DNA from: Patescibacteria group bacterium
Lineage (GTDB): Bacteria; Patescibacteriota; Patescibacteriia; UBA10025; JBIOWE01
Direction: 5' to 3'
Length of the DNA: 64,000 nt
NCBI GenBank assembly: GCA_044868145.1
Contig: JBIOWE010000006.1
Span: forward strand, 218,835-282,834
Shown here: in pieces, positions 2,134 to 43,136 of the stretch
How positions within the stretch are numbered: position 1 is the stretch's first letter
Layout: each line of letters opens with the position of its first letter
Made by a program: the position numbers and the translations under genes
Notes under the pieces: generated by a model
Database searches by the model: none
What the model saw: only the letters and a program-made list of their open reading frames with translations
Told to the model about the DNA's origin: nothing

Positions 2134-2177
2134 TAGGTGAGCTACGCGGAGGCGGAGTTGAAAATTGATACAAATCG

Positions 2178-2206: not shown

Positions 2207-2303
2207 ATATGCGTAACCTAACTAAAAAGGTCGGGCTGTGTATATCTGAAAAAATGCACAGCAAAACAAAAACAAACAATCATTAAAAGCTCAATAATTA
2301 TCC

Positions 2304-3383
2304 ATGAAAATTCATAAGATATTCTTCATAGTAATGGTTCTCATTACGGTTTTTGGGATTAGCTTCCCGATCCAGAACGCAAAGGCAGCTGCTTTAACAA
2401 GCGTGAAAGATGTGATGAATACGATTGCCGCGACCGCGAACGCGAACCATACGATATCGTTCGTTGCTCCGTCTGCGGTCTCGAACGGTTCTACCATCAC
2501 CTTGACCTTTCCCGCAGGTTTTAGCTTAACCGGTCTTGTCGAGGACGACATTGACATTGCGGGTACGACAGAAGGAGAACTAACCACAGCCGCTGATTGC
2601 ACGGGCAGCGAAAAAGCGAGCTTTAGCTTCTCTGGCCAAGTCATTACGTTCACGCTTTGTGCTGGTGACGGCGGTGACTTCACGGGATCGGAAACAATCA
2701 CCATCGAGATTGGCAATCACGCAAGTGCATCCGGAACAGGTTCCAACCAAATTGATAACCCTTCAGCCGGCGACTATCGTATCACCATCGGTGGTACCAT
2801 GACGGACTCCGGCGCGTTTGGTGTCTCAATCATTTCGGATGACAGCGTCAACGTGACCGCGCAGGTGAACGAGTCCATCACCTTCACGATTTCCGACACG
2901 ACAATCGGGTTTGGTACAATTACATCGAGTACAGGTCGCTGGGCGACTAGTGACACGACCGGTACTGATGCCTCGGCAACGACGCCGACATCCGCCCATA
3001 GCATGACCATCGCGACGAACGCCACAGGCGGTTACACGATCACGTACAACGGCGCGACGCTCACAAGCGGCGCGAACACCATTTGTCAAACACCGCTCAC
3101 AGACTGCGCGGACGTGACCGATGACTCGGATGGCAACCCCGGCACGGAGCAGTTTGGAATTTCCGTGAGCACGAGTGGGGACGCCACTATTCCTGCCGCG
3201 TATCTGCGAGATAGTGCCGCTTCCTTTGAATTCAAGCCTTCAACAACCACGACGATCGTCTCGGAGACTGGTCCCACAGCAACGGAGACAATCAGCACGT
3301 CCTATCTTGGCAATATCACCGGAACAACCGAAGCCGGCGCCTACTCGACGAACATCACGTACATCGCGACCGGCACGTTTTAA
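2304..3383 (+). CDS. Secreted Thr/Ser-rich surface protein, paralog B (359 aa), with N-terminal signal peptide
   Basis: Signal peptide MKIHKIFFIVMVLITVFGISFPIQNAKA. C-terminal module ~80% identical to that of the 24..1394 product. Confidence 0.7.
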   Translation: MKIHKIFFIVMVLITVFGISFPIQNAKAAALTSVKDVMNTIAATANANHTISFVAPSAVSNGSTITLTFPAGFSLTGLVEDDIDIAGTTEGELTTAADCTGSEKASFSFSGQVITFTLCAGDGGDFTGSETITIEIGNHASASGTGSNQIDNPSAGDYRITIGGTMTDSGAFGVSIISDDSVNVTAQVNESITFTISDTTIGFGTITSSTGRWATSDTTGTDASATTPTSAHSMTIATNATGGYTITYNGATLTSGANTICQTPLTDCADVTDDSDGNPGTEQFGISVSTSGDATIPAAYLRDSAASFEFKPSTTTTIVSETGPTATETISTSYLGNITGTTEAGAYSTNITYIATGTF

Positions 3384-3490
3384 GCCAGTCCGTAAGCCGA
3401 CAGCCAAACATCCTGACAGCCATCAGCCATTCAGCCTTTAAAGCTGAAAAGCGTTGCAGAATCTTCGTTTATGGATTTTAAAACAAAAAA

Positions 3491-4486
3491 ATGCCGACAA
3501 TAATGAGGAAATTAGGTGTTCTTACTGTCCTCACGATCGGCATTTTTTTTGTTGTCCAAAACGCCCAAGCTATCACCATTATCCCCCCCTCGTTCGAGTT
3601 TCAGGTAAAACCTGGCGAAACGATCAAGACAAAAATAAAGTTATTCAACGAGGAACAGCAGGCAAAACAACTTTATTCAGACGTTACGAATTTTACGGCC
3701 CAAGGGGAAACGGGAAATCCGCAGTTCGACCTGAAAGCTCAAAGAGTGGACTTAAGCGCTTGGATAGATGTTGGGCCCGGCCCATATCCGATGCAAGCCG
3801 GAGACAGGATTGAGGTGCCGATTACGATTAATGTGCCTAAAGATGCGGAACCGGGTGGGCATTATGCGGCTGTGTTCTTTACGACAAAACCACCAGACAC
3901 GGAAGAAAGCGGTTCTATTGGCATTGCATCAGCGATTGGGTCACTTTTCCTCGTGCGCGTTGAAGGCGAAATACGCGAACAAGGTTCTTTAATTGAATTT
4001 TCCGTGGCAGAAGGCAAAACGTTGTTTTCCCGTGCCCCGATCGACTTTTTTGTTCGCTTCAGTAACACCGGCAATGTCCATTTACGGCCGACCGGCACAC
4101 TTACAATTAAAAACATGTTTGGGGGAACAAGCGATACCATTGATGTGAACCCGGGCAAAGGGGCCACTTTACCAGGTCAAATTCGTAAATATGAAGTCAA
4201 ATGGGAGCGCGGGCAGGTTCAAGCCGGAACAGGTAGCGCATGGTCTGATTTTTGGAAAGAATTCAGCAATGAATGGAATAACTTTGCCATTGGCAAATAC
4301 ACAGCTTCCTTGGCTCTAACGTATGGAATCACTCCTGCGGGTAACGCTTCGGGAGAATTGGACTTCTGGGTCTTACCGTGGCATGTATTGTTGGTCTCTC
4401 TCTTCACCCTAGCGATTGTCGTGGTTTTGTTGATCTTCTTCATCAAGCGATATAACGCTTGGATAATTCGTAAAGCAAAGCAGTAA
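3491..4486 (+). CDS. Cell-surface protein with signal peptide and C-terminal TM anchor; DUF916/DUF3324 (CscA-like) architecture
   Basis: N-terminal signal peptide, a beta-rich ectodomain, and a single C-terminal TM helix (VLLVSLFTLAIVVVLLIFFI) followed by a basic tail. The architecture matches the membrane-anchored partner found in Gram-positive WxL/Csc surface clusters. Assigned by architecture only. Confidence 0.45.
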   Translation: MPTIMRKLGVLTVLTIGIFFVVQNAQAITIIPPSFEFQVKPGETIKTKIKLFNEEQQAKQLYSDVTNFTAQGETGNPQFDLKAQRVDLSAWIDVGPGPYPMQAGDRIEVPITINVPKDAEPGGHYAAVFFTTKPPDTEESGSIGIASAIGSLFLVRVEGEIREQGSLIEFSVAEGKTLFSRAPIDFFVRFSNTGNVHLRPTGTLTIKNMFGGTSDTIDVNPGKGATLPGQIRKYEVKWERGQVQAGTGSAWSDFWKEFSNEWNNFAIGKYTASLALTYGITPAGNASGELDFWVLPWHVLLVSLFTLAIVVVLLIFFIKRYNAWIIRKAKQ

Positions 4487-4500
4487 TTGATTGAGACATT

Positions 4501-5355
4501 GTGCGACTGATATCTCTTCGAGTTTACTTGATTTTAGTTCCCATGGTCATCGCAGGTATGGTCATGGGAAGTTCTTTAATTAGTGCGATTGACGTTTCTA
4601 TTTCCGCGGTTGTGTCTGGGACACCGCCTGAAGAGCCGGATACCGTTGTCGTTTTTAAAGGATATGCTTCGCCTGGTGCTTTAGTAACCATTCGGGAAGA
4701 CGGCACCGTGCTCGCGACAGTCACGGCGGGGCCGGATGCGCGGTTTGAAGTTTCAAAAATCATTAATCCGGGAATTTACACGTTCACCCTGTTTGCCACC
4801 GACATCCGAGGAGTCGTTAGTTCGACATTCAGCATAACGTTGAGCTTAAGCCAAGGAACGACAACCACCATTAGTGGCATCTTTCTTGGTTCTACAATTT
4901 CAACGGACAGATCTTCTTACAGCGTCGGAGATATCGTGTCCATTCTTGGCTCGACAGTTCCCCTCTCCACTGTGAGCGTTATTGTGCATTCACACCTTAC
5001 ACAGCAATTTAATGTGAATGCCGGTTCCGATGGTGTCTGGTTGAAACAGGTCTCTGCGGATGGACAATCCATCGAAGTCGGAAGCCATTCAACGTACTCG
5101 CAAGCCGTCGCGCCAGATAACTCCATTTCCGAATTAAGTAAGACCGTAAGCTTTGCCGTCGGCGCGGGAGGGTCGTGCGCAGGATACCTTGCCGCGGATA
5201 TTAATTGCGATGGGTTTGTTAACCTTATTGATTTCAGCATTATGCTGTTCTACTGGAATTCAAGGAACCCAGCGAATCCGCGTGCGGACATTAACGGCGA
5301 TGGACTCGTGTATATAGTTGACTTCAGTATTATGCTTTTCCATTGGACGGGGTAG
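4501..5355 (+). CDS. Secreted/anchored protein with Ig-like region and C-terminal dockerin domain (GTG start)
   Basis: Two tandem Ca-binding dockerin repeats at the C-terminus: DINCDGFVNLIDFSIMLFYW and DINGDGLVYIVDFSIMLFHW. N-terminal hydrophobic signal/anchor. Confidence 0.7.
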   Translation: MRLISLRVYLILVPMVIAGMVMGSSLISAIDVSISAVVSGTPPEEPDTVVVFKGYASPGALVTIREDGTVLATVTAGPDARFEVSKIINPGIYTFTLFATDIRGVVSSTFSITLSLSQGTTTTISGIFLGSTISTDRSSYSVGDIVSILGSTVPLSTVSVIVHSHLTQQFNVNAGSDGVWLKQVSADGQSIEVGSHSTYSQAVAPDNSISELSKTVSFAVGAGGSCAGYLAADINCDGFVNLIDFSIMLFYWNSRNPANPRADINGDGLVYIVDFSIMLFHWTG

Positions 5356-5388
5356 TGTAGCGACGGATGTCCTTGACACAGGGAGATG

Positions 5389-5450
5389 CTGAAACAAGTT
5401 CAGCATGACATGACTCTAGCCATCAAGTAGTCATTCTGAACTTGTTTCAG
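5389..5450. repeat. Long inverted repeat / stem-loop: CTGAAACAAGTTCAG (5389-5403) and its exact reverse complement CTGAACTTGTTTCAG (5436-5450)
   Basis: 15-nt arms in perfect reverse-complement orientation with further inner pairing (ATGACT/AGTCAT). The core GAAACAAGTT resembles the AACAAGATTT REP core near the Y1 transposase. Confidence 0.6.
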
Positions 5451-5487
5451 AATCCCCTTCAGATACTACGTAATCAAACCATAATCC

Positions 5488-6633
5488 ATGCTTCATCGCA
5501 CCACAACAATAAAAATACTGCTATACTTTTTCTTTACGATCGTTGGTGGAATAGTATCAGCCGCATCTCCCGCAGACGCTGCTATTTTGTACGTTAATCC
5601 TGCGGAACAGACTGTTGCATTGCGCGAAAGTTTTGTTGTTGATATTTTGCTGAACAGTGAAGGAGAAACTATTAATACGGTTCAGACGAGTATCAATTAC
5701 TCGCCTGATCTTCTTGAGATTCTTGACGTGTCGAAGGGAGGATCGTTCTTAACGCTTTGGCCGGAGGAGCCGCTTGTTAGTGCACCAACAGGAGTTGTCT
5801 CGTTGGTCGGAGGCATCCCGAACGGTAGCCTTGTGGTAGACGGACGCGTTGTACGTCTTTTTTTTCGGGCAAAGGCGCTCGGAACCTCTTCCATTCGTTT
5901 TGATGAAGACAACTCAGCTATTTACTTGAACGACGGAAAAGGCACGAAGACTGCTCTTTCCAGTCGTCAAGCATCGTATAAAGTAACAAACCCTTCCCCT
6001 TTTCTCGTGGAGATTACTTCTTCGACGCACCCGGACGAAAATATCTGGTATAATAAAGTGTCAGCCACGCTCACATGGCAGGTAAAAGAAGGCGCGCTGT
6101 ATAGTTATGCACTTGCCGAGAGCCCGCTTGATACTCCAGATGAAAAAATTGAGGACCAGGTGGGGAAAGTGACGTTTGATGATCTTGAAGATGGTATCCA
6201 TTATTTTATTTTGCGAGAAAAATTAGACGGCGATGAGTGGGGGCCTGTTTCCATGCGACGTATCATGGTTGACCGATCACCCCCGATCCAGTTTGAATAT
6301 GCATTTTCGAAAGATGATGCAGGAAAGTCCATTTTGATATTTTCCGCGAACGATAAATTCTCCGGCATTGACCGATACCAAATTACCGAAGGACGGAAAG
6401 GGTTAGCTACTGCTCAAAGCCCCTATACTCTCCTGGATCAATCGCGCAAGTCGGCCATTACGCTTCAAGCAGTTGATAGCGCTGGTAACATAAGCGAAAT
6501 TTCCATACCCGGCCTTGGCCGTTCGGAAACGAAGAAAGGTGTGGATCCCCTCGTATGGGTTGCGGTCTCGCTGGTCGCAATTGTCTCGTTCGTATCTTTA
6601 TTTCTTGTATCAAAAAGACGAAAGATCACTTAA
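5488..6633 (+). CDS. Membrane-anchored cohesin-like domain protein 1 (signal peptide, cohesin-like module, Ig-like domains, C-terminal TM)
   Basis: Residues ~30-150 fit the cohesin pattern (ILYVNPAEQTVALRESFVVDILLNSEGETINTVQTSINYSPDLLEILDVSKGGSF, cf. CipA cohesins). C-terminal TM WVAVSLVAIVSFVSLFLV followed by KRRK. Confidence 0.55.
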   Translation: MLHRTTTIKILLYFFFTIVGGIVSAASPADAAILYVNPAEQTVALRESFVVDILLNSEGETINTVQTSINYSPDLLEILDVSKGGSFLTLWPEEPLVSAPTGVVSLVGGIPNGSLVVDGRVVRLFFRAKALGTSSIRFDEDNSAIYLNDGKGTKTALSSRQASYKVTNPSPFLVEITSSTHPDENIWYNKVSATLTWQVKEGALYSYALAESPLDTPDEKIEDQVGKVTFDDLEDGIHYFILREKLDGDEWGPVSMRRIMVDRSPPIQFEYAFSKDDAGKSILIFSANDKFSGIDRYQITEGRKGLATAQSPYTLLDQSRKSAITLQAVDSAGNISEISIPGLGRSETKKGVDPLVWVAVSLVAIVSFVSLFLVSKRRKIT

Positions 6634-6634
6634 T

Positions 6635-7882
6635 ATGTGGATGACAAGAACGAAAATATTCTACTCTCTTGCCTTTGCTTTTCTACTGGTCGTCGTTGGG
6701 ATACCGCACGTTGTGCACGCGGCCGGTTCTTTTTTCCTTAGTCCGAACGTCGGATCGTATACGGTCGGTTCTACGATTACCGTTCGTCTTGTTGTCGGCA
6801 CAGGAGGTCAAGCGATCAATTCTGGACAGGCTACAATCACTTTTCCGACAAGCACCCTCGAGGCGCAAAGCGTTTCAAAATCAGGGTCTATTTTTACGCT
6901 CTGGCCAGAAGACCCACGTATTGTTGGCGACACAGTAACATTCGCTGGCGGATTACCAACCCCTGGCTACAACGGAAGCGGCGGCTTGATTATTACCGCG
7001 ACGTTTCGCGCGACGGCGACTGGTACTGCTACTGTACGTGTTACTTCAGGCCGATTGTTGTTGAACGATGGTTCAGGCACAAATATTCTCACTGGATTTG
7101 GTTCGGCAACCTATACCATTACGCCGGCCCCGCCAGCAAAAAACACGCCAGCAGCTCCAACCGTTTCTTCGAGTTCGCATTCAGATCAAAACCTCTGGTA
7201 TGCAAACTCAAACCCGACATTCGATTGGACGCACGGCGACGGTGTAACGGGATTCAGCTATTCCTTTGACGACCAGGAAGGCGCAATTCCCGATGAGGTA
7301 CAAGACAGCACCTTGCCGCAAGCATCCTATGCTGGGACAAAAGATGGATTCTGGTATTTCCATGTTCGAGCAAGAAATGACGACGGATGGGGAGCCACTG
7401 GCCACTTTACCGTTCGCATTGATACAACGGCGCCGCTTCCGTTCGAGATATTTGCTCTTCTGGATGAGGAACAATCTCAAGATGCCACTCGTCAGATAGC
7501 GTTTAAAACAACAGATGCCGTGTCTGGGCTGGACCATTATGATGTGTATGTGGACGGTTTACACATTGAGCAATTACAGCCGGCTGAAACAGTGCTCTAT
7601 ACGTTGCCGGACTTGCCGCAGGGAACACATACCATTCTCGTGCGAGCAGTTGACCGCGCCGGCAACAGAACCGACGCCTCAGTAAACGTTGGTGCTGCAC
7701 GTTCTTGCCCAAGGACAGGTTTCCAGATAGGTTCATTGTCCACGTGGTGTACCTGGATAGTGGTTTTTCAATGGCTTATAATTCTGCTGCTTATTTTGTT
7801 TATCCTCGCATTACTCAATCGGCGAAACAAGCAGGCTCCAACCACTCAAAATCGCAAGCATCAGCATCAGTCATCCAAATAA
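6635..7882 (+). CDS. Membrane-anchored cohesin-like domain protein 2 (paralog of 5488..6633)
   Basis: Starts at ATG 6635 (MWMTRTKIF...), immediately after the upstream stop. Same domain order as protein 1: a cohesin-like module (GSFFLSPNVGSYTVGSTITVRLVVGTGGQAINSGQATITF), shared downstream domains, and a C-terminal TM. Confidence 0.55.
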   Translation: MWMTRTKIFYSLAFAFLLVVVGIPHVVHAAGSFFLSPNVGSYTVGSTITVRLVVGTGGQAINSGQATITFPTSTLEAQSVSKSGSIFTLWPEDPRIVGDTVTFAGGLPTPGYNGSGGLIITATFRATATGTATVRVTSGRLLLNDGSGTNILTGFGSATYTITPAPPAKNTPAAPTVSSSSHSDQNLWYANSNPTFDWTHGDGVTGFSYSFDDQEGAIPDEVQDSTLPQASYAGTKDGFWYFHVRARNDDGWGATGHFTVRIDTTAPLPFEIFALLDEEQSQDATRQIAFKTTDAVSGLDHYDVYVDGLHIEQLQPAETVLYTLPDLPQGTHTILVRAVDRAGNRTDASVNVGAARSCPRTGFQIGSLSTWCTWIVVFQWLIILLLILFILALLNRRNKQAPTTQNRKHQHQSSK

Positions 7883-14585: not shown

Positions 14586-16403
14586 TTATTCCACGACCGC
14601 TTTTATTCTTCGAATCCCGCTTCCCGATGATGATTCGGAAACGATCTTCAAAACACCGATTTCGCCAGTTCGCTTCACGTGCGGCCCGCCGCAAATTTCT
14701 TTTGAATAGTTACCAACCGAATAGACAGTGACCGTTTCCGGGTACTTTTCCTTGAAAAACGCGAGTGCACCCTTTCGCATAGCATCATCATAGCTCATCT
14801 GTTCCGAGCGTACTTCAAGGTTCTCGCGGATTTTTTGATTCACGATGTTCTCAATCTTGCGTTTTTGATCATCAGTGAGCTTAGCGTTATGGCGGAAATC
14901 AAAGCGCAATCGTTCAGGTGTGATATCTGACCCTTCTTGGCGAACGATCGGTCCGAGCATATCGCGGAGCGCTTGTTGCAGTAAATGAGTTGCGGTATGC
15001 AACTTCGTCACCTGCACCCGGTCTTTCTCGGGTAACGTCGAATCCAGGAGCCCGTGGCCGCCAAATTTCTTTTCGGACCCAACGCGGGAAATTTGTTTAT
15101 GTTTTTCAATGAGTTTATTAAATTCATATTCATCAAACTCAAACCCTTCGCGCTTTAGCTTATCAGATGATATTCCATAGGACGTGTATAATTGAAAAGC
15201 TTCAGACGCAGAGAGAGTTCTACCCGAAGGTTCGGGTGCGGAGATAGTCGAATCCTTTTTTTCCTTTCGGAGTTTTCGTAGGGCATCGACAACAGAAGTC
15301 TTTAAGACTTTTTGGTAGTTTTCCAGTTCCTGATCAAAAAGCTCCTTAATCCTGGGAGATCGTTCTTTTAAGTATGGCACGAACGGAGCGTACACAGTCG
15401 CGATAATGTCGACAAGATTATCAAATCTCAGATGTGGTAAGGAATACTGGTCGGCAGCACGACGAAAGAGCCTGCGTAAGATATAGCCCTGGTCTTTGTT
15501 ACTAAAAAAGGCCCCGTCAAAAGCTAGAAATATACAGGCTTTTATGTGATCCGCCACAATTCGACTCCGTACAATATCTTCGGGCCCGCCGGTCAGACCG
15601 AACGACTTGTCGACTTGTATGGCTTTAATGATCGGTGCGAAAAGATCGGTTTGGTAGACATTCGATTTCTTTTGCACGATAAGGGCTAATCGTTCAAGCC
15701 CCATCCCTGTGTCAATATTTTTTGCAGGCAGGAGTTTTAATTTTCCCGATTCGGTCATGTGGTACTGCGTAAAAACTAAATTCCACACCTCAAGAAATCG
15801 TTTGCATGAGCAATTCGGTATGCACTGATCGCCTTTTTCGCATGGAGTTCCACGCATATCATAATGAATCTCCGAGCAAGGCCCGCAGGGTCCACTTTTA
15901 CCAACAGGTCCCCACCAATTATCCAATTTTCCGAAACCATACAGTCTTTCTTTGGGCAAAAAACGAAGCCATAGAGATTTTGCTTCTTCATCCTGGGGGA
16001 TTTCCTTGTCCCCTTTGAAATACGTAGCAAAGAGGTGACGCTTATCAATTTTCATTTTTTTCGTAACGAATTCCCATGCCCATTCGATTGCCTCTCTCTT
16101 GAAATAATCGCCGAATGAAAACGAACCGAGCATTTCAAAGAAGGTGTTATGGGATTCGTCGCCGACTTGATCAATGTCGGAGGTTCGGATACATCGCTGA
16201 ATCGATACGACCCGGCGTGAATGGAAAACCTCCATAGGGTTTTTTTCTCCGGAAAAATATTGTTTAAATTGTTGCATGCCCGCAGTCGTAAAGAGTACAG
16301 ACGGGTCGTCGGACGGCAACAGCGAAGCGGATTCAACATAAACATGCTTTTTCTTTTGGAAAAAGCCAATGAACTCGTTCCTCATTTTTCCTGATGTCAT
16401 CAC
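14586..16403 (-). CDS. alaS: Alanyl-tRNA synthetase, short form (catalytic plus editing domains, no C-Ala domain)
   Basis: N-terminus FIGFFQKKKHVYVESASLLPSDDPSVLFTTAGMQQFK. Ends after the editing domain (HxxxH/CxxxH-like region ...CGGPHVKRTGEIG...). 605 aa versus ~870 typical. Confidence 0.85.
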   Translation of the reverse strand: MMTSGKMRNEFIGFFQKKKHVYVESASLLPSDDPSVLFTTAGMQQFKQYFSGEKNPMEVFHSRRVVSIQRCIRTSDIDQVGDESHNTFFEMLGSFSFGDYFKREAIEWAWEFVTKKMKIDKRHLFATYFKGDKEIPQDEEAKSLWLRFLPKERLYGFGKLDNWWGPVGKSGPCGPCSEIHYDMRGTPCEKGDQCIPNCSCKRFLEVWNLVFTQYHMTESGKLKLLPAKNIDTGMGLERLALIVQKKSNVYQTDLFAPIIKAIQVDKSFGLTGGPEDIVRSRIVADHIKACIFLAFDGAFFSNKDQGYILRRLFRRAADQYSLPHLRFDNLVDIIATVYAPFVPYLKERSPRIKELFDQELENYQKVLKTSVVDALRKLRKEKKDSTISAPEPSGRTLSASEAFQLYTSYGISSDKLKREGFEFDEYEFNKLIEKHKQISRVGSEKKFGGHGLLDSTLPEKDRVQVTKLHTATHLLQQALRDMLGPIVRQEGSDITPERLRFDFRHNAKLTDDQKRKIENIVNQKIRENLEVRSEQMSYDDAMRKGALAFFKEKYPETVTVYSVGNYSKEICGGPHVKRTGEIGVLKIVSESSSGSGIRRIKAVVE

Positions 16404-17556: not shown

Positions 17557-19209
17557 CTATAATTTGGCTATTTGCCCGGGTCTTAATGGCTGGAAATGGT
17601 TAGCGGGTGTTGGCGTCTGAGGTTTTTGGACAGGACCGCGGGGTTTATTTTCGAGAGTCCGCTGCTCCACCCGTTGGAGATTCGGACGTGCTTTTTTAAA
17701 CGGCAGCGGTTCTCGTGCTAATGCGTCTTTTAGAGAAATGCTTTGTTCCTGAGATTCGATGATGACCGGCTCGGTGTTTTTTGGAGGTGAAAACGGTATC
17801 TCTGGTTTGTTTATTTTCTTCACGTCTTGGCTGCGCCGTCGAGTCTTCCCTTCTGGGGTGTAGGCAGATTCGCTTGGTCGATATGCCGTGTTTTCTTCAT
17901 CCGCAGCTCCGGCGTACATTTCTGTTACGCCGCTCCATCGGAGAATTCTTTCTTCAACGATTGTGCGCGGTGTTCCGTAGCGCTCTTGGGATGCGCGAAT
18001 AACTTTTTCTCGATTGTTTGTTTTTCCCTCTAATGGAGGTAGGGTTGTTGCCGAAAACGGTTCGGATGCGACGCCATCAATCATAAGTTTCATGGCAACT
18101 TCATATTTCGCAAGGTTAAGTAAATCCTCTTCGGCGAAAATCGGAAAAAATTCTTTCGCAAGAAATTCGGCGTCAGCTGCACCGATACGAAAACACGTGA
18201 TTGTACCGACATTGCCGAAGACGGCAGCCTGAACTTCTTCCTCGAGTTGCTCGATGTATTGATGAGCAATAATAAGATTGAGCCGGTATTTTCGAGCTTC
18301 GGAAAGAATACTGGCAAAACTTTCTGTCGCAAAGTTTTGAAACTCGTCTACGTAAAGATAGAAATCTTTTCGTTCAGATTCCGGAATGTTCACTCGGCTC
18401 ATGGCAGCAAGCTGCAGTTTTGTAACAAGCATTGCCCCAAGGAGAGCGGAATTATCTTCACCAATGCGCCCCTTTGAAAGATTGATGAGTAAGATTTTTT
18501 GATTATCCATTGCTTCGCGGAGATTAACCGCGCTTTTCGGCTGTCCGACGATATTACGAATGATAGCGCCTGAAAGGAATTGCCCAACTTTATTTTGTAT
18601 TGGCGCGATTGCCTCGTTACGGAATTTTTCATTGTATGACGAAAATTCGTGCAACCAAAATCCTTTGACGATCGGGTCGCTGATTTTTTCGACAACTTTT
18701 TTTCGAAACGCTTTGTCAACGAGGATACGAGCAATGCCCAACATTGTTGAACCCGGATATTCCAACAAGGCGAGAATGCAATTGTTCAAAATATATTCCA
18801 TACGAGCACTCCACACCCCGGCCCAAATTTTTGTAAAAACGCCCATCAATCCTGAAGCAACCAGATGTCGCTCGTTTGGGTTGACGTTTTCAAGCACATT
18901 GAATCCGATGGGGTATTCGGTATCTGCCGGATTAAACACGATAACGTCATTGATTCGATATGAAGGGATAAAGTCGATAACTTTTTCAATGAGGTCTCCG
19001 TGAGGATCTACGACGGTAACGCCATTGCCCGCACGGATATCGGAAATAATCATATTTTCCAGAACGGTCGTCTTGCCCATTCCAGTTTTTCCGATCAGGT
19101 ACGTATGGCGACGGCGGTCGTCCCGCTTAATACCAAACTTTGTCCGCAAATTGCGGAAATTTGTTTCTGCAAAAAATGTAATTTCTCCGGGATCGGTTCG
19201 TATCTCCAT
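17557..19209 (-). CDS. Cytoplasmic P-loop ATPase resembling type IV secretion coupling proteins (TraD/TraG/VirD4 superfamily), without its own TM segment
   Basis: Walker A IGKTGMGKTT. Walker B LYVDEFQNF. The downstream LIIAHQYIEQL motif is typical of the T4CP family. No N-terminal TM helices. Confidence 0.6.
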   Translation of the reverse strand: MEIRTDPGEITFFAETNFRNLRTKFGIKRDDRRRHTYLIGKTGMGKTTVLENMIISDIRAGNGVTVVDPHGDLIEKVIDFIPSYRINDVIVFNPADTEYPIGFNVLENVNPNERHLVASGLMGVFTKIWAGVWSARMEYILNNCILALLEYPGSTMLGIARILVDKAFRKKVVEKISDPIVKGFWLHEFSSYNEKFRNEAIAPIQNKVGQFLSGAIIRNIVGQPKSAVNLREAMDNQKILLINLSKGRIGEDNSALLGAMLVTKLQLAAMSRVNIPESERKDFYLYVDEFQNFATESFASILSEARKYRLNLIIAHQYIEQLEEEVQAAVFGNVGTITCFRIGAADAEFLAKEFFPIFAEEDLLNLAKYEVAMKLMIDGVASEPFSATTLPPLEGKTNNREKVIRASQERYGTPRTIVEERILRWSGVTEMYAGAADEENTAYRPSESAYTPEGKTRRRSQDVKKINKPEIPFSPPKNTEPVIIESQEQSISLKDALAREPLPFKKARPNLQRVEQRTLENKPRGPVQKPQTPTPANHFQPLRPGQIAKL

Positions 19210-19210
19210 C

Positions 19211-20587
19211 TTATTTTATCGGTAAGTTAAAAGGTTTAGGCGCGGTGCGCGCTGCATATACCGGTGAGGTTGGCGCAATTTGCTGGCCAGTTGGCAAGCG
19301 AATAGGTGGGCGTGCCTTCTTTGTTTCCGTACGCTGCACTGCGGGCACTTTAACCGTTTCGACGGGGAAGTGCCAGAGACTTGCTAGTTCTTCCACGTTC
19401 AGGATCATGGTAGTTCTTCCGCGTCTGAGTGCGCGCGATCGATAGCCCCAGAGGATTCTGCGTTGACGCGTAAGGATACGTTGCTTGATGAAGAAATAAT
19501 CGGCGGTCGACATCGTCTTTTTATGCGGGATAATGCTGTTTAAGTCCTGTGTGTTGAACTGGTTCATTGCACCGGATAAGGCGTTCGCTGCCTTTACCTT
19601 GTCGTAAACGTCTCTACGCGCGAAGTACACGAGTCGAATCTTAGTTTTAAATGCTAATCTGCCAATTTTGTATCCGATTGCTTCGACGATATTACGTTCT
19701 GACGGCGGCATGTGCTGCATAAGAGACGGCAGCTTTTGGTCTGTTTTTCGCGTTTGCTCGAACTCGGAAGGGGCTATGATAGAGGCGGTCAGCGATTCGG
19801 TAATGCCCTGCGTAACTTGCCGAGGAATGTATGTCCAATCTTCGGACTGCGACGACTTTGCGCCTATCAGTTTTTTAATCAAAGTAACGCCTTTTCGTGC
19901 CCAGTCCGCAGCGAGCGGAGCGACAATGATTTGAAACCATACTTGTTCCGTAGGACCCAGCCGGCTTATCATTTCGAGAAACGACGCCATAGGATCCATG
20001 AAGGTTTGAGTCAGTGAATGCTCGAACATCGGGTATGTACGAATGGGATACGGATCGGATTTTGTGAAACGGTATTCCGTCCCCCAAAGGTCATAGTCCT
20101 TGTGCGGCAATTCAAGGGGTCTTGGCATCATGTCGACATAATCTTCGATTTCCGTGATTTCGGCATCAGGGTATTGTGCGTAGATGGATGCTTCCACCAG
20201 GTCCCGGAATTTTACAGGTGTGCGAATGGCAAATTGGATATACCCGGCGATTCCGATAATCTCGAAACTAATTGCGTTCGCGTCTTGGGTGTAACCTTTC
20301 CCATAGCGATCCCAGATTGTGCCCTTCCGGATGGTGCCGTAAATATGTTCAAACAAATGCTCTACGGCTTTTGGGCTTTGTTCGTTCAATTTAGGTATGT
20401 CAAGAGCAAGGATTGTGTGCTCGATAGAAAATTCATATTTATTGCGAATGTATGTCTTCCATCCGTCCCAGATTCCAAGGAGTATCGTAATAAGAATTAA
20501 AATCCATCCCCCGCTTTGGATAAGAAGCCAGGTGATGACAAATGGGTTTTGAGCAAGCTGGAATGCAGTTAGATCGAGTTCGATCAT
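19211..20587 (-). CDS. Membrane protein of unknown function (N-terminal TM), translationally coupled to the T4CP-like ATPase
   Basis: TM helix WILILITILLGIW near the N-terminus. The stop/start overlaps with both the upstream and downstream genes. Confidence 0.5.
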   Translation of the reverse strand: MIELDLTAFQLAQNPFVITWLLIQSGGWILILITILLGIWDGWKTYIRNKYEFSIEHTILALDIPKLNEQSPKAVEHLFEHIYGTIRKGTIWDRYGKGYTQDANAISFEIIGIAGYIQFAIRTPVKFRDLVEASIYAQYPDAEITEIEDYVDMMPRPLELPHKDYDLWGTEYRFTKSDPYPIRTYPMFEHSLTQTFMDPMASFLEMISRLGPTEQVWFQIIVAPLAADWARKGVTLIKKLIGAKSSQSEDWTYIPRQVTQGITESLTASIIAPSEFEQTRKTDQKLPSLMQHMPPSERNIVEAIGYKIGRLAFKTKIRLVYFARRDVYDKVKAANALSGAMNQFNTQDLNSIIPHKKTMSTADYFFIKQRILTRQRRILWGYRSRALRRGRTTMILNVEELASLWHFPVETVKVPAVQRTETKKARPPIRLPTGQQIAPTSPVYAARTAPKPFNLPIK

Positions 20588-21726
20588 GATGTTTTTTGTT
20601 CCGGTATTTTTTTTGTTTTAACGGTGTATTTTCCGTCTTGGAGACGCGCAAACCGGTCTTTATTGGTAAGGGCAAGAACAATCGTATTTTCTTTCACAAC
20701 CCGGCGCTCAAGCACTTTTTTGACCAAATCGTTTCGTGTCAGTGGCTGTTCGGCTTCAAGGAGTATCTGCTCAATCACTTCAGCCACAACGCCAGGTTTA
20801 TATCCCCATTCCTTGAGAGCATACATACCTCGGCCAACGAGAACATACTGGCCATTGAGAATAAGTTCATTATGAACGGTTGGCGGGTGAGCTCTACGTT
20901 TGTCGAAGTGTATCTCATTAATTCTTTTTGTGATTTCCGTAAAGTGCATGGGGCGCCCGGTTTTCTTTAGGATCAGGTATATCTTATCGTTCATGCGCTT
21001 CGGTTTAATGGTCCCCCATTCCGCAAGACCATAGTCGCCAAAGGGGTTCTTCGCGATATGTTGACTTATTGCGAGATATGAATCAATAACATCGTCGGTA
21101 AAAAGTGATACGTGCGTCTTGTAAAGGTCGGATTCACGAAACGCTTTCACGAGAGCATCAAAGGCAATGGTCTTACCGTATTTCTTAATAATATCTTCGA
21201 GTATTGCTACGGATTGCTCAAACACACGTAAAGGTGCCGTTTGCACATGCCAGAAACGATGATATTGCTTGTCTGCCGGTTTTTGCTTGAAAACCTCCTG
21301 GAGAATTTCACTTAGGAGGAAGAGTGTATTATTTTTATTCGCGTCATTGATTCCCGTGACTTCGAGCAGCTTTGAGAGAAGAAGTTCCTCCGCCATGATT
21401 CTGCCGTGCTGTTCTAATATTTGGCTTATAGTAAGTTCGACTGGACGAACGATTTGCTGAAACATTTTTTGTCCTTTGATTTTCGTCGTGCCAGTTTTTT
21501 CAATCTGACGGATCCGTTCGCGCGTCACAGAATAGGTCGCTCCGATTTGTTCAAGTGTTTCTTCTGGTTTGCCAGTAAGTCCGAAACGTCGACGCAAAAC
21601 GTCCTCTTCACGGGGCAGAAGAGGTTTCAGTAATTGGTTGACTACCTCAACAGGATTGAATTGTTCAATGTTGCTTACCTGTTGGCTCTGTATTATTTTT
21701 TCGAGGATTGAATTTTTTTCTTCCAT
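20584..21726 (-). CDS. Sigma-70 region-4-like HTH domain protein with a ~280-aa C-terminal domain of unknown function (not a complete sigma factor)
   Basis: LPREEDVLRRRFGLTGKPEETLEQIGATYSVTRERIRQIEKTG matches sigma70 region 4.2. No region 2 is present. The likely start is MEEKNS at 21726, because the promoter at 21766-21794 lies inside the longer ORF-track start (21786). Confidence 0.55.
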   Translation of the reverse strand: MEEKNSILEKIIQSQQVSNIEQFNPVEVVNQLLKPLLPREEDVLRRRFGLTGKPEETLEQIGATYSVTRERIRQIEKTGTTKIKGQKMFQQIVRPVELTISQILEQHGRIMAEELLLSKLLEVTGINDANKNNTLFLLSEILQEVFKQKPADKQYHRFWHVQTAPLRVFEQSVAILEDIIKKYGKTIAFDALVKAFRESDLYKTHVSLFTDDVIDSYLAISQHIAKNPFGDYGLAEWGTIKPKRMNDKIYLILKKTGRPMHFTEITKRINEIHFDKRRAHPPTVHNELILNGQYVLVGRGMYALKEWGYKPGVVAEVIEQILLEAEQPLTRNDLVKKVLERRVVKENTIVLALTNKDRFARLQDGKYTVKTKKIPEQKTS

Positions 21727-21765
21727 AAAATATGCAACGAAAACGTCATTTTTATTTTCGAACTT

Positions 21766-21794
21766 AGTATAGCATACTTTTGACATTGTGTCAA
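21766..21794 (-). promoter_or_regulatory. Consensus sigma70 promoter (minus strand): TTGACA, 17-nt spacer, TATACT
   Basis: -35 is the reverse complement of 21789-21794. -10 is the reverse complement of 21766-21771. It is preceded on the minus strand by a hairpin (ACCTTGTT..AACAAGGT, 21818-21841) plus a T-run that could terminate secDF. Confidence 0.6.
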
Positions 21795-21851
21795 GAGTTA
21801 AGTAGAAAATATAAAAGACCTTGTTCTGAACATAACAAGGTTTAGCTTAAG

Positions 21852-22746: not shown

Positions 22747-24441
22747 TTAGTGGGTGTTTTTCTGAGTTTCACGCAGCCCAAATAATTTACCTTTTTTTTG
22801 CAGATGTTCTGTTAAAAGAAGGCGCATGAATGTCCTGGTAATTGTTATTGCAGAGAACATGCTGACGAGAATCCCGATAGCAAGTGTTATGGCAAATCCC
22901 TTAATGACTGATGTACCAAACCACGCGAGAATGAGGCATGAAAGAAGACTCGAGGCATTTGAGTCGCGTATGGACGGCCAAGCTCGCTTGAACCCCTCTT
23001 CTATAGCCTGCGCCAGTGTTCTTCCCGCTCGTAATTCCTCGCGCGTCCGCTCGAAGATCAAAATATTCGCGTCAACGGCCATGCCTATCGACAGTATAAA
23101 TCCTGCCACCCCGGCCAAGGACAGTGTAATGGATAGAAGTTTGAACAACATGAGCGCAATGAGCGCGTAGAGCGTTAGGGCGACAACCGATAACAACCCG
23201 GGTAGTCGATAGTACACAATCATGAACACGGAGACGAACAGTAGCCCGAGAATGCCAGCGAGAAAACTGCGTTCAACCGATATTTTTCCAAGAGTCGGGC
23301 CAACGTTGTTTTGGCTCGCCAAGCTAATGGGCACTGGGAGCGCACCCGCGTTTAACCGTTGGGCCAATTGCTTTGCTTCATCAAGCGTAAACTTGCCGGT
23401 GATGACTGCCTGACCACCACTGATTTTTTCATTCACGCGAGGAAGAGATATAGGGCTCCCGTCAAGAAAGATGCCTACTACTTTTCCGACGTTGCGCTGC
23501 GTAATTTCCTCAAATAGCTTCGAACCCTCGCTGTCGAATTGCAATGAAACTTGAGGCTCCCCAGTGTTTTGATCGAACTGCACGGTGGCCGATTTGAGTT
23601 GTTTGCCTGTCAGTTGTGTCGGAGAAAAATCTGAAGCCTGATCAGGGTTTAGTGACTTTTTTATAAATAAAATATGGCTCGAGCGAACTTCGCGCACGCC
23701 GTTGTTATTGCGTTCGTCAGTTTTTTTGATGATGTGGTATCCGAACTGACTTTCTACGACTTCCGTGTAGACCTTTCCCGTCTCAAGCTTATCGAAGATG
23801 ATGTCCTCAAATTCCGGAACGAGTTGGCCGCGCTGCGTAAAATCAAGGTCTCCGCCTTTTTTCGAGCCATCCTGCGTACTGGTATTACCCGGATCTTCAG
23901 AAAACTCGTCGGCGAGTTTCGCAAAGTCTTCACCTGCAAGCGCGCGTTTGAGAACGTCCTCCGCTTTTTTCTTCTGGCTAGCATTGAACGTTTCTCTGCT
24001 TGCTTTTTCTTCATCCGAAAGTGGGGCTACTTCTTTTTGCTCTTTGAATTCAAGGAGAGGAGTTTCCCCGATAAGGAGTATCGCTTCATTGACGTCTTGG
24101 ATACCTGGTAATTCAACGATAACCCGCCAGTTATCGCCTACTTTTGTGGTTTGAACAACTGGTTCGGAAACGCCAAACGCATTGACTCGACGTTCGATGA
24201 CATCTCGCACGCCGTCAAGCGCTCCTTGTCGGTCCGACGCAGGAATATTGGATACATCTGCATCGTACACAAGGCGCGTTCCTCCGAGCAGATCAAGGCC
24301 GAGCTTTACTTTCAGCTCTTTGGTGAATGAACCGATTTTTATGTTCGGACCTTTTGGCCAGTCGACAGTGCCCGCGAGAATAGCAATGACGACTATGATG
24401 CCGAACGTCAGCCAAACTCGTTTACGGAGAGTCATAATCAA
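22747..24441 (-). CDS. secD: Protein translocase subunit SecD with a parvulin (PpiC-type PPIase) domain inserted in periplasmic loop P1
   Basis: SecD TM1 and TM2-6 core are present. Inside P1: EDFAKLADEFSEDPGNTSTQDGSKKGGDLDFTQRGQLVPEFEDIIFDKLETGKVYTEVVESQFGYHIIK, which matches the PpiC/PrsA/SurA parvulin signature. Confidence 0.8.
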   Translation of the reverse strand: MIMTLRKRVWLTFGIIVVIAILAGTVDWPKGPNIKIGSFTKELKVKLGLDLLGGTRLVYDADVSNIPASDRQGALDGVRDVIERRVNAFGVSEPVVQTTKVGDNWRVIVELPGIQDVNEAILLIGETPLLEFKEQKEVAPLSDEEKASRETFNASQKKKAEDVLKRALAGEDFAKLADEFSEDPGNTSTQDGSKKGGDLDFTQRGQLVPEFEDIIFDKLETGKVYTEVVESQFGYHIIKKTDERNNNGVREVRSSHILFIKKSLNPDQASDFSPTQLTGKQLKSATVQFDQNTGEPQVSLQFDSEGSKLFEEITQRNVGKVVGIFLDGSPISLPRVNEKISGGQAVITGKFTLDEAKQLAQRLNAGALPVPISLASQNNVGPTLGKISVERSFLAGILGLLFVSVFMIVYYRLPGLLSVVALTLYALIALMLFKLLSITLSLAGVAGFILSIGMAVDANILIFERTREELRAGRTLAQAIEEGFKRAWPSIRDSNASSLLSCLILAWFGTSVIKGFAITLAIGILVSMFSAITITRTFMRLLLTEHLQKKGKLFGLRETQKNTH

Positions 24442-24506: not shown

Positions 24507-25946
24507 CTAGTCATGCACAATGACGGTTGTGCCGACGCTTGCCCATTCATACAGTTTTTTTGAGTCGGCAAGCGATTGTCGCACGCACCCGTGCGAAACG
24601 CGAACGCCAAGGTGGTTTTCTCCCTCGTAGATCCTGCCGCCGGCAATTTTCCAATATGGCAGGGAGTGGATGCCATAGGCGCCATTACCGGCAAACGCCA
24701 TCCAATAGTCCATGTATAAGCTGTACGGTTTTGAATACGCGACAAGAATTTTATTGGTTGTTTTGAATGTCCCAAGCGGGGTGGGCATGCTCCACTTGCC
24801 AGTTGAAATACGGTGCTCGCCGATTTTCTGTCCATTTTCATAGTAGCGCAACATCTGCTCGGAAATATCAATATCAATGTATTTGGCTAGATCTTGTCTC
24901 CCTTCGGCAATTCGGCGTGTCGGTCCGACGATTAAGGTGTTATCGCCCGTACCAAAATCAGCTTCGGCTATGGAAACACCGCCGCGGAACTCTCTTTCAT
25001 AAGCGAAAAAGTTCATTGCGAGAGGTGTACCGTCAATTTCAAAGCTCCGTACGTGCGGCGCGCCTGTTTGACCCGCGGCCGCGACAATTTCGTCAAAGCC
25101 ATCATTGTCCACGTCGGCGCCAGTAACGGTTGCGCCTCCTGTAAATTGAGTTGGAAAGGCAGTAAACTGTCCGAGTACCTGGTTGGTTGAGAGTTTTATG
25201 ACTTTGATCCACGCGCTATCATAGCGGGCAACGGAGAAAATAAGTTCATCGTCGGGTCCGCCGTCAACATTTGCCGCGGCAAGGTTCACGCCGCCCTTGA
25301 AATCTTGATGGAATACGTAAAAGTCTTTGTTGAGGGATTGGCCAAAACGGTTAAAAACGCGAATATGCGGACCACCGCCTGCACCTGGCGCGGTAATAAT
25401 TTCTGGCAGGCCTGACCCATCAATGTCCGCAACGGCGACGTTGACGCCACCGCGAAATGTCGTGTCATACGCGAAAAATCCTGGGGTAAACACTGGTGTA
25501 CCGTATCGGTCAAAAATGCGCACCTGCGGTGCAGCCCCAAACTTTGTGCCGGTCACAATTTCCGCTTGTCCGTCTCCGTCCAGATCGCCGCAAGCAACAG
25601 TAACGCCGGCCCGCATCTTTTGGTCATATGCAAAAAAACCTGGGGTGAACACGGTTGCACCATCATGATTGAATATCCTAACCTGTGGACCGCCGCCCGG
25701 ACCAGCTCCCGTAATAATCTCGTCTATACCATCGCCGTCTAAATCGCAGGCCGTAACTGATGCACCGCCTCGGAAGATTTCCGGGTACGCAAGAAACGCG
25801 TGCTCCACAGTTCCACTAGTTGCGTCAATGATCTTTACCTCCGGCTCGCGCGTGTCCCCTGCGAGCGCCATTTTTGGTAACAAAAAAAGTATTGCGCTTA
25901 CAAAAGCCAATACTCCTAATGCTTCGAATACTTCCCTTTTGCTCAT
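24507..25946 (-). CDS. Secreted FG-GAP (integrin-alpha-like) beta-propeller repeat protein fused to a C-terminal L,D-transpeptidase (YkuD) domain
   Basis: Signal peptide. Six or more repeats of DxDGDGxxE/FG-GAP type (CDLDGDGIDEIITG, CGDLDGDGQAEIVTG, ADIDGSGLPEIITA, ...). C-terminal catalytic motif VRVSHGCVRQ, typical of YkuD L,D-transpeptidases. Confidence 0.75.
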   Translation of the reverse strand: MSKREVFEALGVLAFVSAILFLLPKMALAGDTREPEVKIIDATSGTVEHAFLAYPEIFRGGASVTACDLDGDGIDEIITGAGPGGGPQVRIFNHDGATVFTPGFFAYDQKMRAGVTVACGDLDGDGQAEIVTGTKFGAAPQVRIFDRYGTPVFTPGFFAYDTTFRGGVNVAVADIDGSGLPEIITAPGAGGGPHIRVFNRFGQSLNKDFYVFHQDFKGGVNLAAANVDGGPDDELIFSVARYDSAWIKVIKLSTNQVLGQFTAFPTQFTGGATVTGADVDNDGFDEIVAAAGQTGAPHVRSFEIDGTPLAMNFFAYEREFRGGVSIAEADFGTGDNTLIVGPTRRIAEGRQDLAKYIDIDISEQMLRYYENGQKIGEHRISTGKWSMPTPLGTFKTTNKILVAYSKPYSLYMDYWMAFAGNGAYGIHSLPYWKIAGGRIYEGENHLGVRVSHGCVRQSLADSKKLYEWASVGTTVIVHD

Positions 25947-29815: not shown

Positions 29816-30712
29816 TCAGCCTGCTGGACGGGAGTTATCCACAGCGAGTTTCATGAAATTGTAGACAAGTTTTGCCGCAAGAAAATTCGGAGCTTCAAGG
29901 CCCGGAATTGGCTTGAGCTCAACGGCGTCCGCGCCGACTATGTTGACAGAACGAAAAACTTTTTCTACGAAATTGAGCACCTCGTACCACCCTAATCCTC
30001 CAGGTTCAGGCGTGCCGACGGATGGCATGATCGATGGGTCGAAGCAATCAAAATCAAAGGTTATGTACACATTTCTCGTTAAACCCTTTAGCACCGTTTT
30101 GAGTGGCGGAATGTTAGGAGCATAATACACGGTCCTGATGCGGTGTTTTCTTATGTACTGTTCTGATTCAGCATTGATATTTCTGATTCCAATGGAAACG
30201 GTGGGGACATTGAGTTCTCTGATCCTCCGCATCACGCAAGCATGGCTCCACTTTGTTCCTTCAAACGAATTGAGGAAATCCGTGTGGGCATCAAAGTGGA
30301 GCACGGAGATGTCTTTGATTTTTTGCTTGACCGCCTTTACGGCGCCGTAGGTAATCGAATGCTCCCCGCCGAGTGTTATCGGAAATTTTCCCTCTCTCAC
30401 TGCTTTGTCCGTGATAACCTGCTGCACACCATCAAGCGCTTTTGCGGGAGAGTCTTTTGAAACGACGATTTCATCAAGGGTGAAAACATCAGTGGACGCG
30501 AGCCCCACAAGTTTATCTTTTTCGGCTGCGTCGAGCATTTCATCAAGATACCGGGAATTTTCGATAATTGAATAGGGCCCCGCGTTTGTACCGGAAGAAA
30601 AAGAAACCGTTCCTTCATACGGTATGGGAAAAATGACAACCTTCGCTTTCTGAAAATCTTGTTTGTGAACCGCGCCAAAATTAAACGGCCACAACTCGTA
30701 GGTTTTAGTCAT
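29816..30712 (-). CDS. speB: Agmatinase/arginase-family ureohydrolase (likely agmatinase)
   Basis: HFDAHTD and DFDCFDPS metal-binding motifs. Start probably at MTKTYELW. Confidence 0.75.
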
Positions 30713-31338
30713 TCCATGAGAAAGACTGCCGCGGCGACAACAGATGTCCAAAGTCCATTTTTGTCACCGATCGCAGACTGTGTAATGTTCATGGTATTGA
30801 CGATTTCGTTGGATATCTTCCAGAGTTCCTTCCGCTCATCATAGGAGACGTTGGGATCGAACTCTACGCCGAGCGTAGTTGCTAGCATCTGCGCTGCGAG
30901 ATCCTCTGCATAGTCCCCGGCTTTTTCTTCGGTTTCACCAAATGGATGGTGTTCCGAAAGATACCCATACTGGCTTTGGTCAGCAGGAATGGCGACGCCA
31001 ATCGAAGCCGCTATCAGTCTATTGGATTCGTACGTTTCGTTCCGTGCCATTACGCAGAAGGTTACCTGACCAGGCATCAATTGCCGCAATCCGTCGTCTT
31101 TGTAAATACGCTTGCACCCGGGAGGTAAAATGGAAGAAACTGTAACCAAGTTGCATTTTTCAATGCCCGCGTCTCGCAAGGCGAGCTCAAACGAAGAAAG
31201 ACGTTCCTTATGCCGGCCGACGCCTCGCGTGAAAAAAACTTTTTTTGGGACAAAGGGTGAATGCGAACTTGCTTTTTCTGCGCTTCCTTCTTCTATTTTT
31301 TTACTCGATTCATGCTCCTTCTGTTGGTTGTTGCTCAT
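30709..31338 (-). CDS. pdaD: Pyruvoyl-dependent arginine decarboxylase (PdaD family)
   Basis: VFFTRGVG...[12 protein letters not shown] matches the PdaD self-cleavage Ser-Ser region. The N-terminal ~25 aa may be an extension or an alternative start (ORF-track start 31407). Confidence 0.7.
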
Positions 31339-31476
31339 TGTCTGTGTTCTTACAATTTCGTGGGTGCAGATTTTATTTCTCAATTGCGTTACTGACCGTG
31401 CTCCCACGTGGTGCGTTGTGGATAACTTTCTTCTGTATCTATTTTACAGTCTTTTTTTTCGCAATACAATAGATTT

Positions 31477-43129: not shown

Positions 43130-43136
43130 GAATTGT

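Follow-up and report, generated by a model that had tools for sequence, protein, structure and literature searches.

The closest described relatives of the locus analyzed here are ATPases of type IV secretion systems (T4SSs). Type IV coupling proteins (T4CPs), such as TrwB of R388, VirD4, and DotL/IcmO, combine a P-loop motor with a transmembrane (TM) domain in their own polypeptide, while VirB4, exemplified by TrwK of R388 (PDB 7O42/8RTD), follows a two-part plan in a single chain, a membrane-associated N-terminal alpha/beta domain and then a RecA-like motor, with its TM helix supplied by VirB3. Two variations are on record: a soluble coupling-type ATPase that depends on a small adjacent membrane protein, as in TraJ/TraI of pIP501 and the TraG-TraJ pairs encoded in conjugation operons (PMC7434980), and a separate VirB4-N-terminal-like protein beside a T4SS ATPase, as in TrsD/TraD of pGO1/pSK41 and their patescibacterial homologs, which adjoin virB4 (PMC12102498). 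In the Patescibacteria, Quinonero-Coronel et al. 2025 counted 5,713 VirD4-type homologs in 2,918 of 3,035 genomes (~96%), only 148 of them near virB4, itself found in 2,417 genomes; the authors considered these orphan genes possibly exapted, left their role open, and described no partner (PMC12102498). Here, we analyze a three-gene operon within a 64-kb stretch of a patescibacterial chromosome (assembly GCA_044868145.1, contig JBIOWE010000006.1, positions 218,835 to 282,834; hereafter the window), coding for a sigma-70 region 4 plus HARE-HTH protein (gene 1), a DUF8128 membrane protein (gene 2), and a TrwB/VirD4-type ATPase (gene 3). We favor, with moderate confidence, the reading that this is a vertically inherited core-genome operon with its own strong promoter, in which genes 2 and 3 are the halves of one membrane-bound motor with, at a guess, a DNA-type substrate and gene 1 has a broader role.

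To describe the linkage of the three genes, we used a synteny sample of 80 species-level genome loci out of 538 confirmed. Direct adjacency on the same strand was found between gene 1 and gene 2 in 65/65 loci and between gene 2 and gene 3 in 72/76, while gene 3 was followed by mnmA in only 3/65; upstream, secD was followed by secF in 51/52 loci and secF by gene 1 in 39/53. The three genes thus hold together much more tightly than the synteny around them, and the co-conservation expected of a genuine module holds in related genomes. A more diverse sample came from a scan of unsorted metagenomes with the motif YAQYPxAE, which retrieved 92 DUF8128 open reading frames (ORFs), 61 of them with room downstream. 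Here the ATPase was adjacent in 38 loci, fused to DUF8128 in 11, and further downstream in one (adjacent or fused, 49/61). The fusions, with a TM-DUF8128-ATPase layout, amount to 12 ORFs in the 11 loci, the complete ones being 831 to 1167 amino acids (aa) long. In them, the DUF8128 profile ends at about residue 380 to 435 and the ATPase profile starts at once after it, with the Pfam TrwB_AAD_bind match beginning at residue 395 to 447 and Walker A at ~410 to 450; six of the seven complete ORFs have an N-terminal TM helix followed by basic residues. These fusions were seen only in the metagenome pattern scan; among the best 150 matches of a representative-library search, every protein was a stand-alone DUF8128 of 366 to 691 aa. 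Fusion in relatives is strong evidence that genes 2 and 3 act as one machine, and their adjacency elsewhere supports the same conclusion. Its layout is a TM helix, a VirB4-N-terminal-like domain, a coupling-protein-type motor, and a tail, so that a VirB4-shaped protein with a motor of the coupling-protein type is the better description of the pair. One metagenome contig (L138) carries two fused DUF8128-ATPase genes in tandem (1277-3769 and 3991-5358).

A further linked pair is listed in the supplement to Wang et al. 2023 (PMC10633639): SEML1_0294 and SEML1_0293 of Southlakia epibionticum, which lie adjacent on the same strand. SEML1_0293 has 921 aa, with TrwB_AAD_bind at residues 402-719 within a P-loop region at 361-795, and was classified as non-essential by transposon sequencing (Tn-seq; normalized reads at T0, T1, and T2 of 5817, 2940, and 1372). 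Its size and domain offsets equal those of the fused proteins, from which we infer that it is a fused DUF8128-ATPase. SEML1_0294 (349 aa; Sigma70_r4 at 27-72, HARE-HTH at 225-283) corresponds to gene 1 and was Tn-seq essential (31, 4, and 14 reads at the same times). Both genes were flagged as "core family" and "Patescibacteria enriched," and Southlakia has a separate essential RpoD (SEML1_0063) (PMC10633639).

Gene 3 (17557-19209, minus strand) codes for a soluble ATPase of 550 aa. Its Walker A motif, GKTGMGKT (residues 40-47; 19069-19092, minus strand), contains the invariant residues G40, K41, T42, G43, G45, and K46, and the stretch from Walker B (FYLYVDEFQ, 283-291) to LIIAHQ (312-317), at 18259-18363 on the minus strand, aligns to LFIDEL...VVAGLQ of TrwB. 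Walker A, the VDEFQ of Walker B (287-291), and LIIAHQ do not vary across 30 homologs, and gene 3 is therefore presumably an active ATPase. Between the Walker motifs, at the position of the all-alpha domain of TrwB, residues 111-235 (18505-18879, minus strand) are predicted to form helices only in an AlphaFold2 (AF2) model, with a predicted local distance difference test score (pLDDT) of 79 to 93, and the Pfam TrwB_AAD_bind match (residues 29-324) runs across this insertion. The C-terminal residues 431-550 (17560-17919, minus strand) form a disordered tail rich in Pro, Lys, and Glu, in which an ISL helix (~491-498) is conserved and which ends in PGQ. In the motor, its motifs, the all-alpha insertion, and the disordered tail, gene 3 resembles the T4CPs; unlike them, it has no TM domain in its own polypeptide, the maximal 19-residue hydropathy being 1.31 (mean of 1.33 in 30 homologs). 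The first-pass annotation had called gene 3 a 550-aa ATPase with these motifs and no TM segment, and all of this was found. One homolog (P0232, 604 aa) carries an additional CxxC-x17-CxxC zinc-ribbon domain (PF23477).

In Pfam, NCBIfam, and PDB alike, the sequence of gene 3 is closest to T4CPs. TrwB_AAD_bind scored 56.1 bits against a cut-off of 20.5, TraG-D_C and T4SS-DNA_transf were also above their cut-offs, and DUF87, HerA_C, and FtsK_SpoIIIE were under theirs. When PDB was searched with gene 3 alone or with a profile of 30 sequences, significance was reached only by the coupling proteins TrwB and DotL. Profile alignment (hhalign) to TrwB extended from Walker A up to and including the LIIAHQ-type motif, covering 265 columns at 94% probability, whereas that to TrwK/VirB4 covered 34 columns in the Walker A region only. 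Of the VirB4 models TIGR00929, CagE_TrbE_VirB, and AAA_10, none claimed gene 3 as a member, TIGR00929 scoring 14.5 bits against a cut-off of 643, so that sequence favors a coupling protein over VirB4. Structure comparison gave the highest values for DndH-C (16.8), DotL (16.6), TrwB (16.2), and the VirB4 C-terminal domain (16.1), and lower ones for Cag-beta (14.8), HerA (11 to 13), and FtsK/EccC/TcpA (about 11). The coupling-protein assignment proposed at first pass is therefore upheld, Pfam, PDB, hhalign, and structure comparison placing gene 3 with TrwB/VirD4/DotL rather than with HerA or FtsK. A HerA/FtsK-type ATPase was rejected on the sub-threshold HerA_C and FtsK_SpoIIIE scores, the better TrwB and DotL matches, and the lower structural values.

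Gene 2 (19211-20587, minus strand) codes for a membrane protein of 458 aa belonging to DUF8128 (PF26449), according to the precomputed Pfam assignment for the window protein and nearly all its homologs. The family is large, with 3,056 clusters at 50% identity (E ≤ 1e-3), and no published work on it was found in the literature searched. As had been noted from the sequence, the protein has one N-terminal TM helix, at residues 17-40 (20468-20539, minus strand; Kyte-Doolittle value of 2.25), predicted to be oriented N-out/C-in. Across 31 homologs, the flanks of this helix contain on average 0.03 K+R on the N side and ~2 on the C side; because the basic residues sit in the C flank only, the remaining ~400 aa are predicted to be cytoplasmic, on the side of the ATPase. 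Most of this part (residues 57-410; 19358-20419, minus strand) is modeled as an alpha/beta domain, and the AF2 model specifically resembles VirB4 of R388 (TrwK; R388 sequence NC_028464). No RecA-like ATPase is among the fold matches and gene 2 has no P-loop, so the similarity is probably to the non-ATPase N-terminal part of VirB4, and the cytoplasmic domain of DUF8128 would have the fold of a VirB4 N-terminal domain. At the end of a disordered tail (pLDDT < 50) there is a P-x-N-L-P motif (residues 452-456; 19220-19234, minus strand), in which P452, N454, L455, and P456 are conserved in at least 90% of the aligned sequences. The TM partner had been regarded at first pass as a split-off part of a coupling protein, and this idea did not hold: gene 2 is not a missing TM domain but a DUF8128 protein with a predicted VirB4-N-terminal-like fold.

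The module thus shares with VirB4 the two-part plan and, through the fused relatives, the single-chain layout, which in the window is divided between two genes 1 nucleotide (nt) apart. It differs from VirB4 in that the TM helix lies within DUF8128 itself, and in that sequence similarity is confined to the Walker A region of gene 3, with none for DUF8128, the motor being closer to the T4CPs. A VirB4-N-terminal-like domain, whether as a partner or in the same chain, is not part of any described coupling protein. Compared with TraJ/TraI, the membrane partner here is not small, having 458 aa and a large, predicted folded cytoplasmic domain, and there are no conjugation genes nearby; compared with TrsD, DUF8128 adjoins a T4CP-like gene rather than virB4, and no sequence relation to TrsD of pSK41 was detected.

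Several observations weigh against the one-motor reading as a whole. The VirB4-like fold comes from a single AF2 model built from 31 sequences (pLDDT of 78), with low template modeling scores (~0.33). Alignment with hhalign of DUF8128 to TrwK and to pSK41 TrsD gave no sequence similarity; likewise, a Pfam scan of the 31 DUF8128 homologs at E ≤ 5, using a Pfam copy that lacks PF26449, gave nothing relevant, and a PDB profile search with DUF8128 gave no match. Structure alone does not separate the gene 3 model from the VirB4 C-terminal domain or from DndH. In 11 of the 61 metagenome loci there was no ATPase near DUF8128, and the first ~360 residues of SEML1_0293, to which the published tables assign no domain, are presumed to be DUF8128. 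We also infer, rather than observe, the substrate, the oligomeric state, and the contact between the products of genes 2 and 3. As for the substrate, family precedent (PMC7434980), the DNA-binding neighbor, and the co-localization of class ABY1 T4SS loci with comF, recG, and radA point only weakly to DNA.

In the mechanism that we propose, DUF8128 would insert in the membrane by its single N-out/C-in helix and present its ~350-aa domain, with the putative VirB4 N-terminal-domain fold, on the cytoplasmic side, where gene 3 would supply the TrwB/VirD4-type P-loop motor with its all-alpha insertion and its disordered, motif-bearing tail. DUF8128 may tether and organize the ATPase ring, presumably a hexamer, at the membrane, much like the N-terminal domain of VirB4, and a polymer at the inner membrane face would be translocated, remodeled, or handled at the expense of ATP. 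The two conserved tails could be docking sites. Our guess is that the substrate is DNA or nucleoprotein and that the role is accessory and non-essential, for instance in exchanging or taking up DNA. Possibly the module operates side by side with the T4SS that Patescibacteria encode at other loci, without being its obligatory coupling protein. Gene 1 would be a protein binding DNA, RNA polymerase, or both, with a broader essential role, that shares its promoter with the motor. The first-pass idea of a minimal, pilus-linked device that translocates DNA or protein is speculation.

One competing explanation is an ordinary coupling protein of a distant VirB4-type T4SS, split into an anchor and a soluble motor in the manner of TraI/TraJ of pIP501. 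The T4CP family signals of gene 3 agree with it, as does the existence of a T4CP subfamily without a TM domain that uses a small membrane partner (PMC7434980); moreover, VirB4 systems occur in ~80% of Patescibacteria, class ABY1 included, and a t4cp gene at a distance from virB4 is nothing exceptional (PMC12102498). However, a homolog is dispensable in Southlakia, where the T4SS is essential, and Wang et al. state in their main text, which makes no mention of VirD4, T4CP, SEML1_0293, or SEML1_0294, that this T4SS has no recognizable coupling protein (PMC10633639). The T4CP homologs also exceed VirB4 in their distribution (2,918 versus 2,417 genomes), the partner is a 458-aa VirB4-N-terminal-like protein instead of a small anchor, and no relaxase was found in the window. 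We consider this explanation rather unlikely.

Quite improbable, in our opinion, is a DNA pump independent of any T4SS, acting in transformation uptake or in chromosome handling at division and replacing ComFA- or FtsK-type motors. TrwB-family motors work on DNA (PMC7434980), gene 1, to which the pair is closely tied, has two DNA-binding helix-turn-helix (HTH) domains, the module is non-essential in Southlakia, as is comEC, and class ABY1 T4SS loci lie together with the three genes named above; against the replacement of FtsK, TM7x has ftsK. A bolder version of the one-motor reading would make the module a third, hitherto unrecognized lineage of T4SS-related motors, a VirB4-type N-terminal domain on a VirD4-type engine, which in Patescibacteria would work independently of the T4SS channel and, together with gene 1, hand DNA or transcription complexes to the membrane. 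We hold this to be doubtful, though if true the module would be an extant link between the two canonical T4SS ATPases.

An anti-phage defense or mobile-element function comes to mind because gene 3 matches components of MADS (mad8) and Dnd (DndH/DptH), showing that the clade is so used elsewhere. Besides, a scan of viral contigs with the motif VDEFQNF found gene-3-like soluble ATPases in IMG/VR, on putative viral or integrative contigs (L088, 2383-3618; L101, 2550-3848; L103, 2171-3451; 411 to 432 aa, at most 593 bits), whose neighbors include a tyrosine integrase, a phospholipase D (PLD)-like nuclease, and an M23 peptidase. However, none of these had DUF8128, which is also absent from the mad8 and DndH relatives. 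In addition, the module lies among housekeeping genes whose order is conserved across hundreds of species, has a conserved housekeeping-type promoter, belongs to a "core family" in Southlakia, and has no methylase, nuclease, or integrase beside it in the window. Such a function is extremely improbable, and the HerA/FtsK, defense-system, and mobile-element readings were all rejected on scores and genomic context.

Gene 1 lies at 20584-21726 (minus strand) and codes for 380 aa after correction of its start. The first ATG of the ORF (21786) falls within the promoter, and the homologs, of 370 to 380 aa, align from MEEKNSIL; hence the true start is the ATG at 21726, and the public annotation of 400 aa is too long. 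The protein contains a sigma-70 region 4 HTH (residues 33-84; 21475-21630, minus strand; Pfam Sigma70_r4, E = 2.3e-11), with region 4 of primary sigma factors as its best PDB profile matches (E = 5e-17). Sigma region 2 or 3 had no Pfam match at E ≤ 0.1, at which only Sigma70_r4 appeared, and the NCBIfam sigma models covered gene 1 only with their C-terminal region 4, at scores far under their cut-offs. With region 2 absent from the matches, gene 1 is not a sigma factor, as had been recognized at first pass. The same annotation took region 4.2 to be the only recognizable part, and in this it was mistaken, since there is a second domain, a HARE-HTH or RNA polymerase delta-like winged helix (residues 244-307; 20806-20997, minus strand; Pfam E = 3.3e-8; NCBIfam TIGR04567, 44.2 bits against a cut-off of 42). 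Gene 1 has both the sigma-70 region 4 and the HARE-HTH domain, which is also that of the delta subunit (RpoE), at family-level significance, without sigma regions 2 or 3 and without the acidic delta tail: in RpoE, the HARE-HTH is N-terminal and a long acidic tail follows, whereas in gene 1 it is C-terminal and is followed by a basic end. No published work on HARE-HTH in Patescibacteria was found in the literature searched. Judging from the "Patescibacteria enriched" flag in Southlakia, the pairing of both domains in one essential protein appears specific to Patescibacteria.

The three minus-strand ORFs (20584-21786, 19211-20587, and 17557-19209) and the TTGACA-17-TATACT promoter reported at first pass are present in the window. 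The promoter (21766-21794, minus strand) matches the consensus at 11/12 positions in a promoter scan and has an extended -10 element (TTGACA-17 nt-TG-n-TATACT). In the 150 nt preceding gene 1, 45/46 relatives have a sequence agreeing with it at 10/12 positions or better, compared with 5/138 control pieces cut from inside gene 2, and TTGAC[ATG]-N14-TG-N-TATANT is present upstream of gene 1 in 53 relatives; because matches recur so far above the controls, the promoter is not a chance match. Upstream of it, a terminator-like hairpin (21818-21841, minus strand; an 8-bp stem and then CTTTTATATT) marks the end of the secDF unit, between the secF stop (21852) and the promoter. A separate transcription unit formed by the three genes is supported. 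Translationally, the genes had been described as three overlapping ones, which is correct for genes 1 and 2 (ATGA) and incorrect for genes 2 and 3, separated by a 1-nt spacer (TAA-G-ATG).

Gene 1 could be a dedicated regulator of genes 2 and 3, for example by autoregulation through the -35 TTGACA box. Gene 2 directly follows gene 1 in every GTDB locus where both could be compared, gene 1 lies just upstream of DUF8128 in 48 of the 74 metagenome loci with room upstream, and its linkage to the ATPase is also seen in Southlakia; furthermore, the nearest match of its region 4 is the part of primary sigma factors that binds the -35 element, and the -35 box of the operon is perfect. However, the Southlakia ortholog is essential and the adjoining ATPase is not, which places its main role elsewhere, gene 1 is missing from 14/77 genome loci that retain genes 2 and 3, and the upstream region in relatives is conserved only in the promoter hexamers, with no extra operator found. 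This weakens the dedicated regulator suggested at first pass, which we now consider improbable. Given the contrast in essentiality, the main role of gene 1 is probably general, as a factor associated with RNA polymerase or DNA rather than one controlling the motor alone. Its persistent adjacency across two deeply separated classes may nevertheless reflect a functional tie. In five metagenome loci (L116, L134, L148, L179, and L212), a shorter DUF8128 of ~400 to 430 aa, without the tail, follows a gene 1 homolog, and there is no ATPase within 2 to 6 kb downstream; genes 1 and 2 can thus stay linked where gene 3 is not close by.

Neither the ATPase family nor its occurrence as orphan genes in Patescibacteria is new (PMC12102498), and DUF8128 was catalogued as a domain of unknown function. 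In the available literature, we found no description of the DUF8128-ATPase partnership or fusion, of the VirB4-N-terminal-like fold, or of the association with an essential sigma4/HARE-HTH protein behind a conserved promoter. A large part of bacterial diversity belongs to the Patescibacteria, whose conserved genes mostly lack an explanation. The orphan VirD4-like genes gain a defined anatomy, with DUF8128 and its putative VirB4-like fold as an obligatory partner or N-terminal domain, a fission/fusion relationship, a conserved promoter, and a lasting link to an essential, lineage-enriched protein. A Pfam domain of unknown function is given a probable structural class, the findings bear on the relation between the two T4SS ATPase families, VirB4 and VirD4, and an annotation puzzle becomes a set of testable hypotheses in Southlakia and TM7x, both now genetically tractable.

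The window is ordinary core chromosome of a Kerfeldbacteria-like patescibacterium and not a mobile region, since the flanks of the operon (secD-secF directly upstream; mnmA, alaS, infA, and rpsM downstream), together with the mur/ftsW/murG cluster and secA, are core genes and this neighborhood recurs in relatives. The window further contains genes for rhamnose biosynthesis and a type IV pilus cluster. Among the large ORFs of the window, there was no match to VirB, VirD, VirB4, VirB6, VirB8, relaxase, or integrase families, confirming that no VirB-type channel genes are nearby; in this, the chromosomal, core module differs from T4CPs encoded with VirB genes or a relaxase. Homologs of all three proteins, where named, come only from Patescibacteria.

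Some neighboring genes have unusual features. SecD (22747-24441, minus strand) contains a parvulin-type peptidyl-prolyl isomerase (Rotamase_3, E = 4.4e-20, residues 147-243) between SecD_1st and the P1 head, an architecture also seen in relatives (L082-L085 and L229). Upstream of secD, a YkuD L,D-transpeptidase fused to FG-GAP repeats (24507-25946, minus strand) is conserved in relatives, with two copies in L084/L085. The alanyl-tRNA synthetase (14586-16403, minus strand), whose start overlaps the mnmA stop, has only 605 aa (tRNA-synt_2c plus tRNA_SAD), and this short form is found in relatives too (587 to 605 aa). The type IV pilus cluster (41399-49869, plus strand) is 20 kb from the operon, with no evident link to it, and its order is pilB, pilC, a 323-aa protein, an N-methyl pilin-like protein, a 606-aa protein without a family, pilM, pilN, and pilO. 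A run of six ORFs of 284 to 456 aa (24-7882, plus strand) has no Pfam family save for one with Dockerin/Big_6; along with a 597-aa ORF without a Pfam family (60358-62151, minus strand), these may be lineage-specific surface proteins. Finally, at 29816-31407 (minus strand), a pyruvoyl-dependent arginine decarboxylase gene overlaps an arginase-family (agmatinase-like) gene, which suggests a polyamine pathway.

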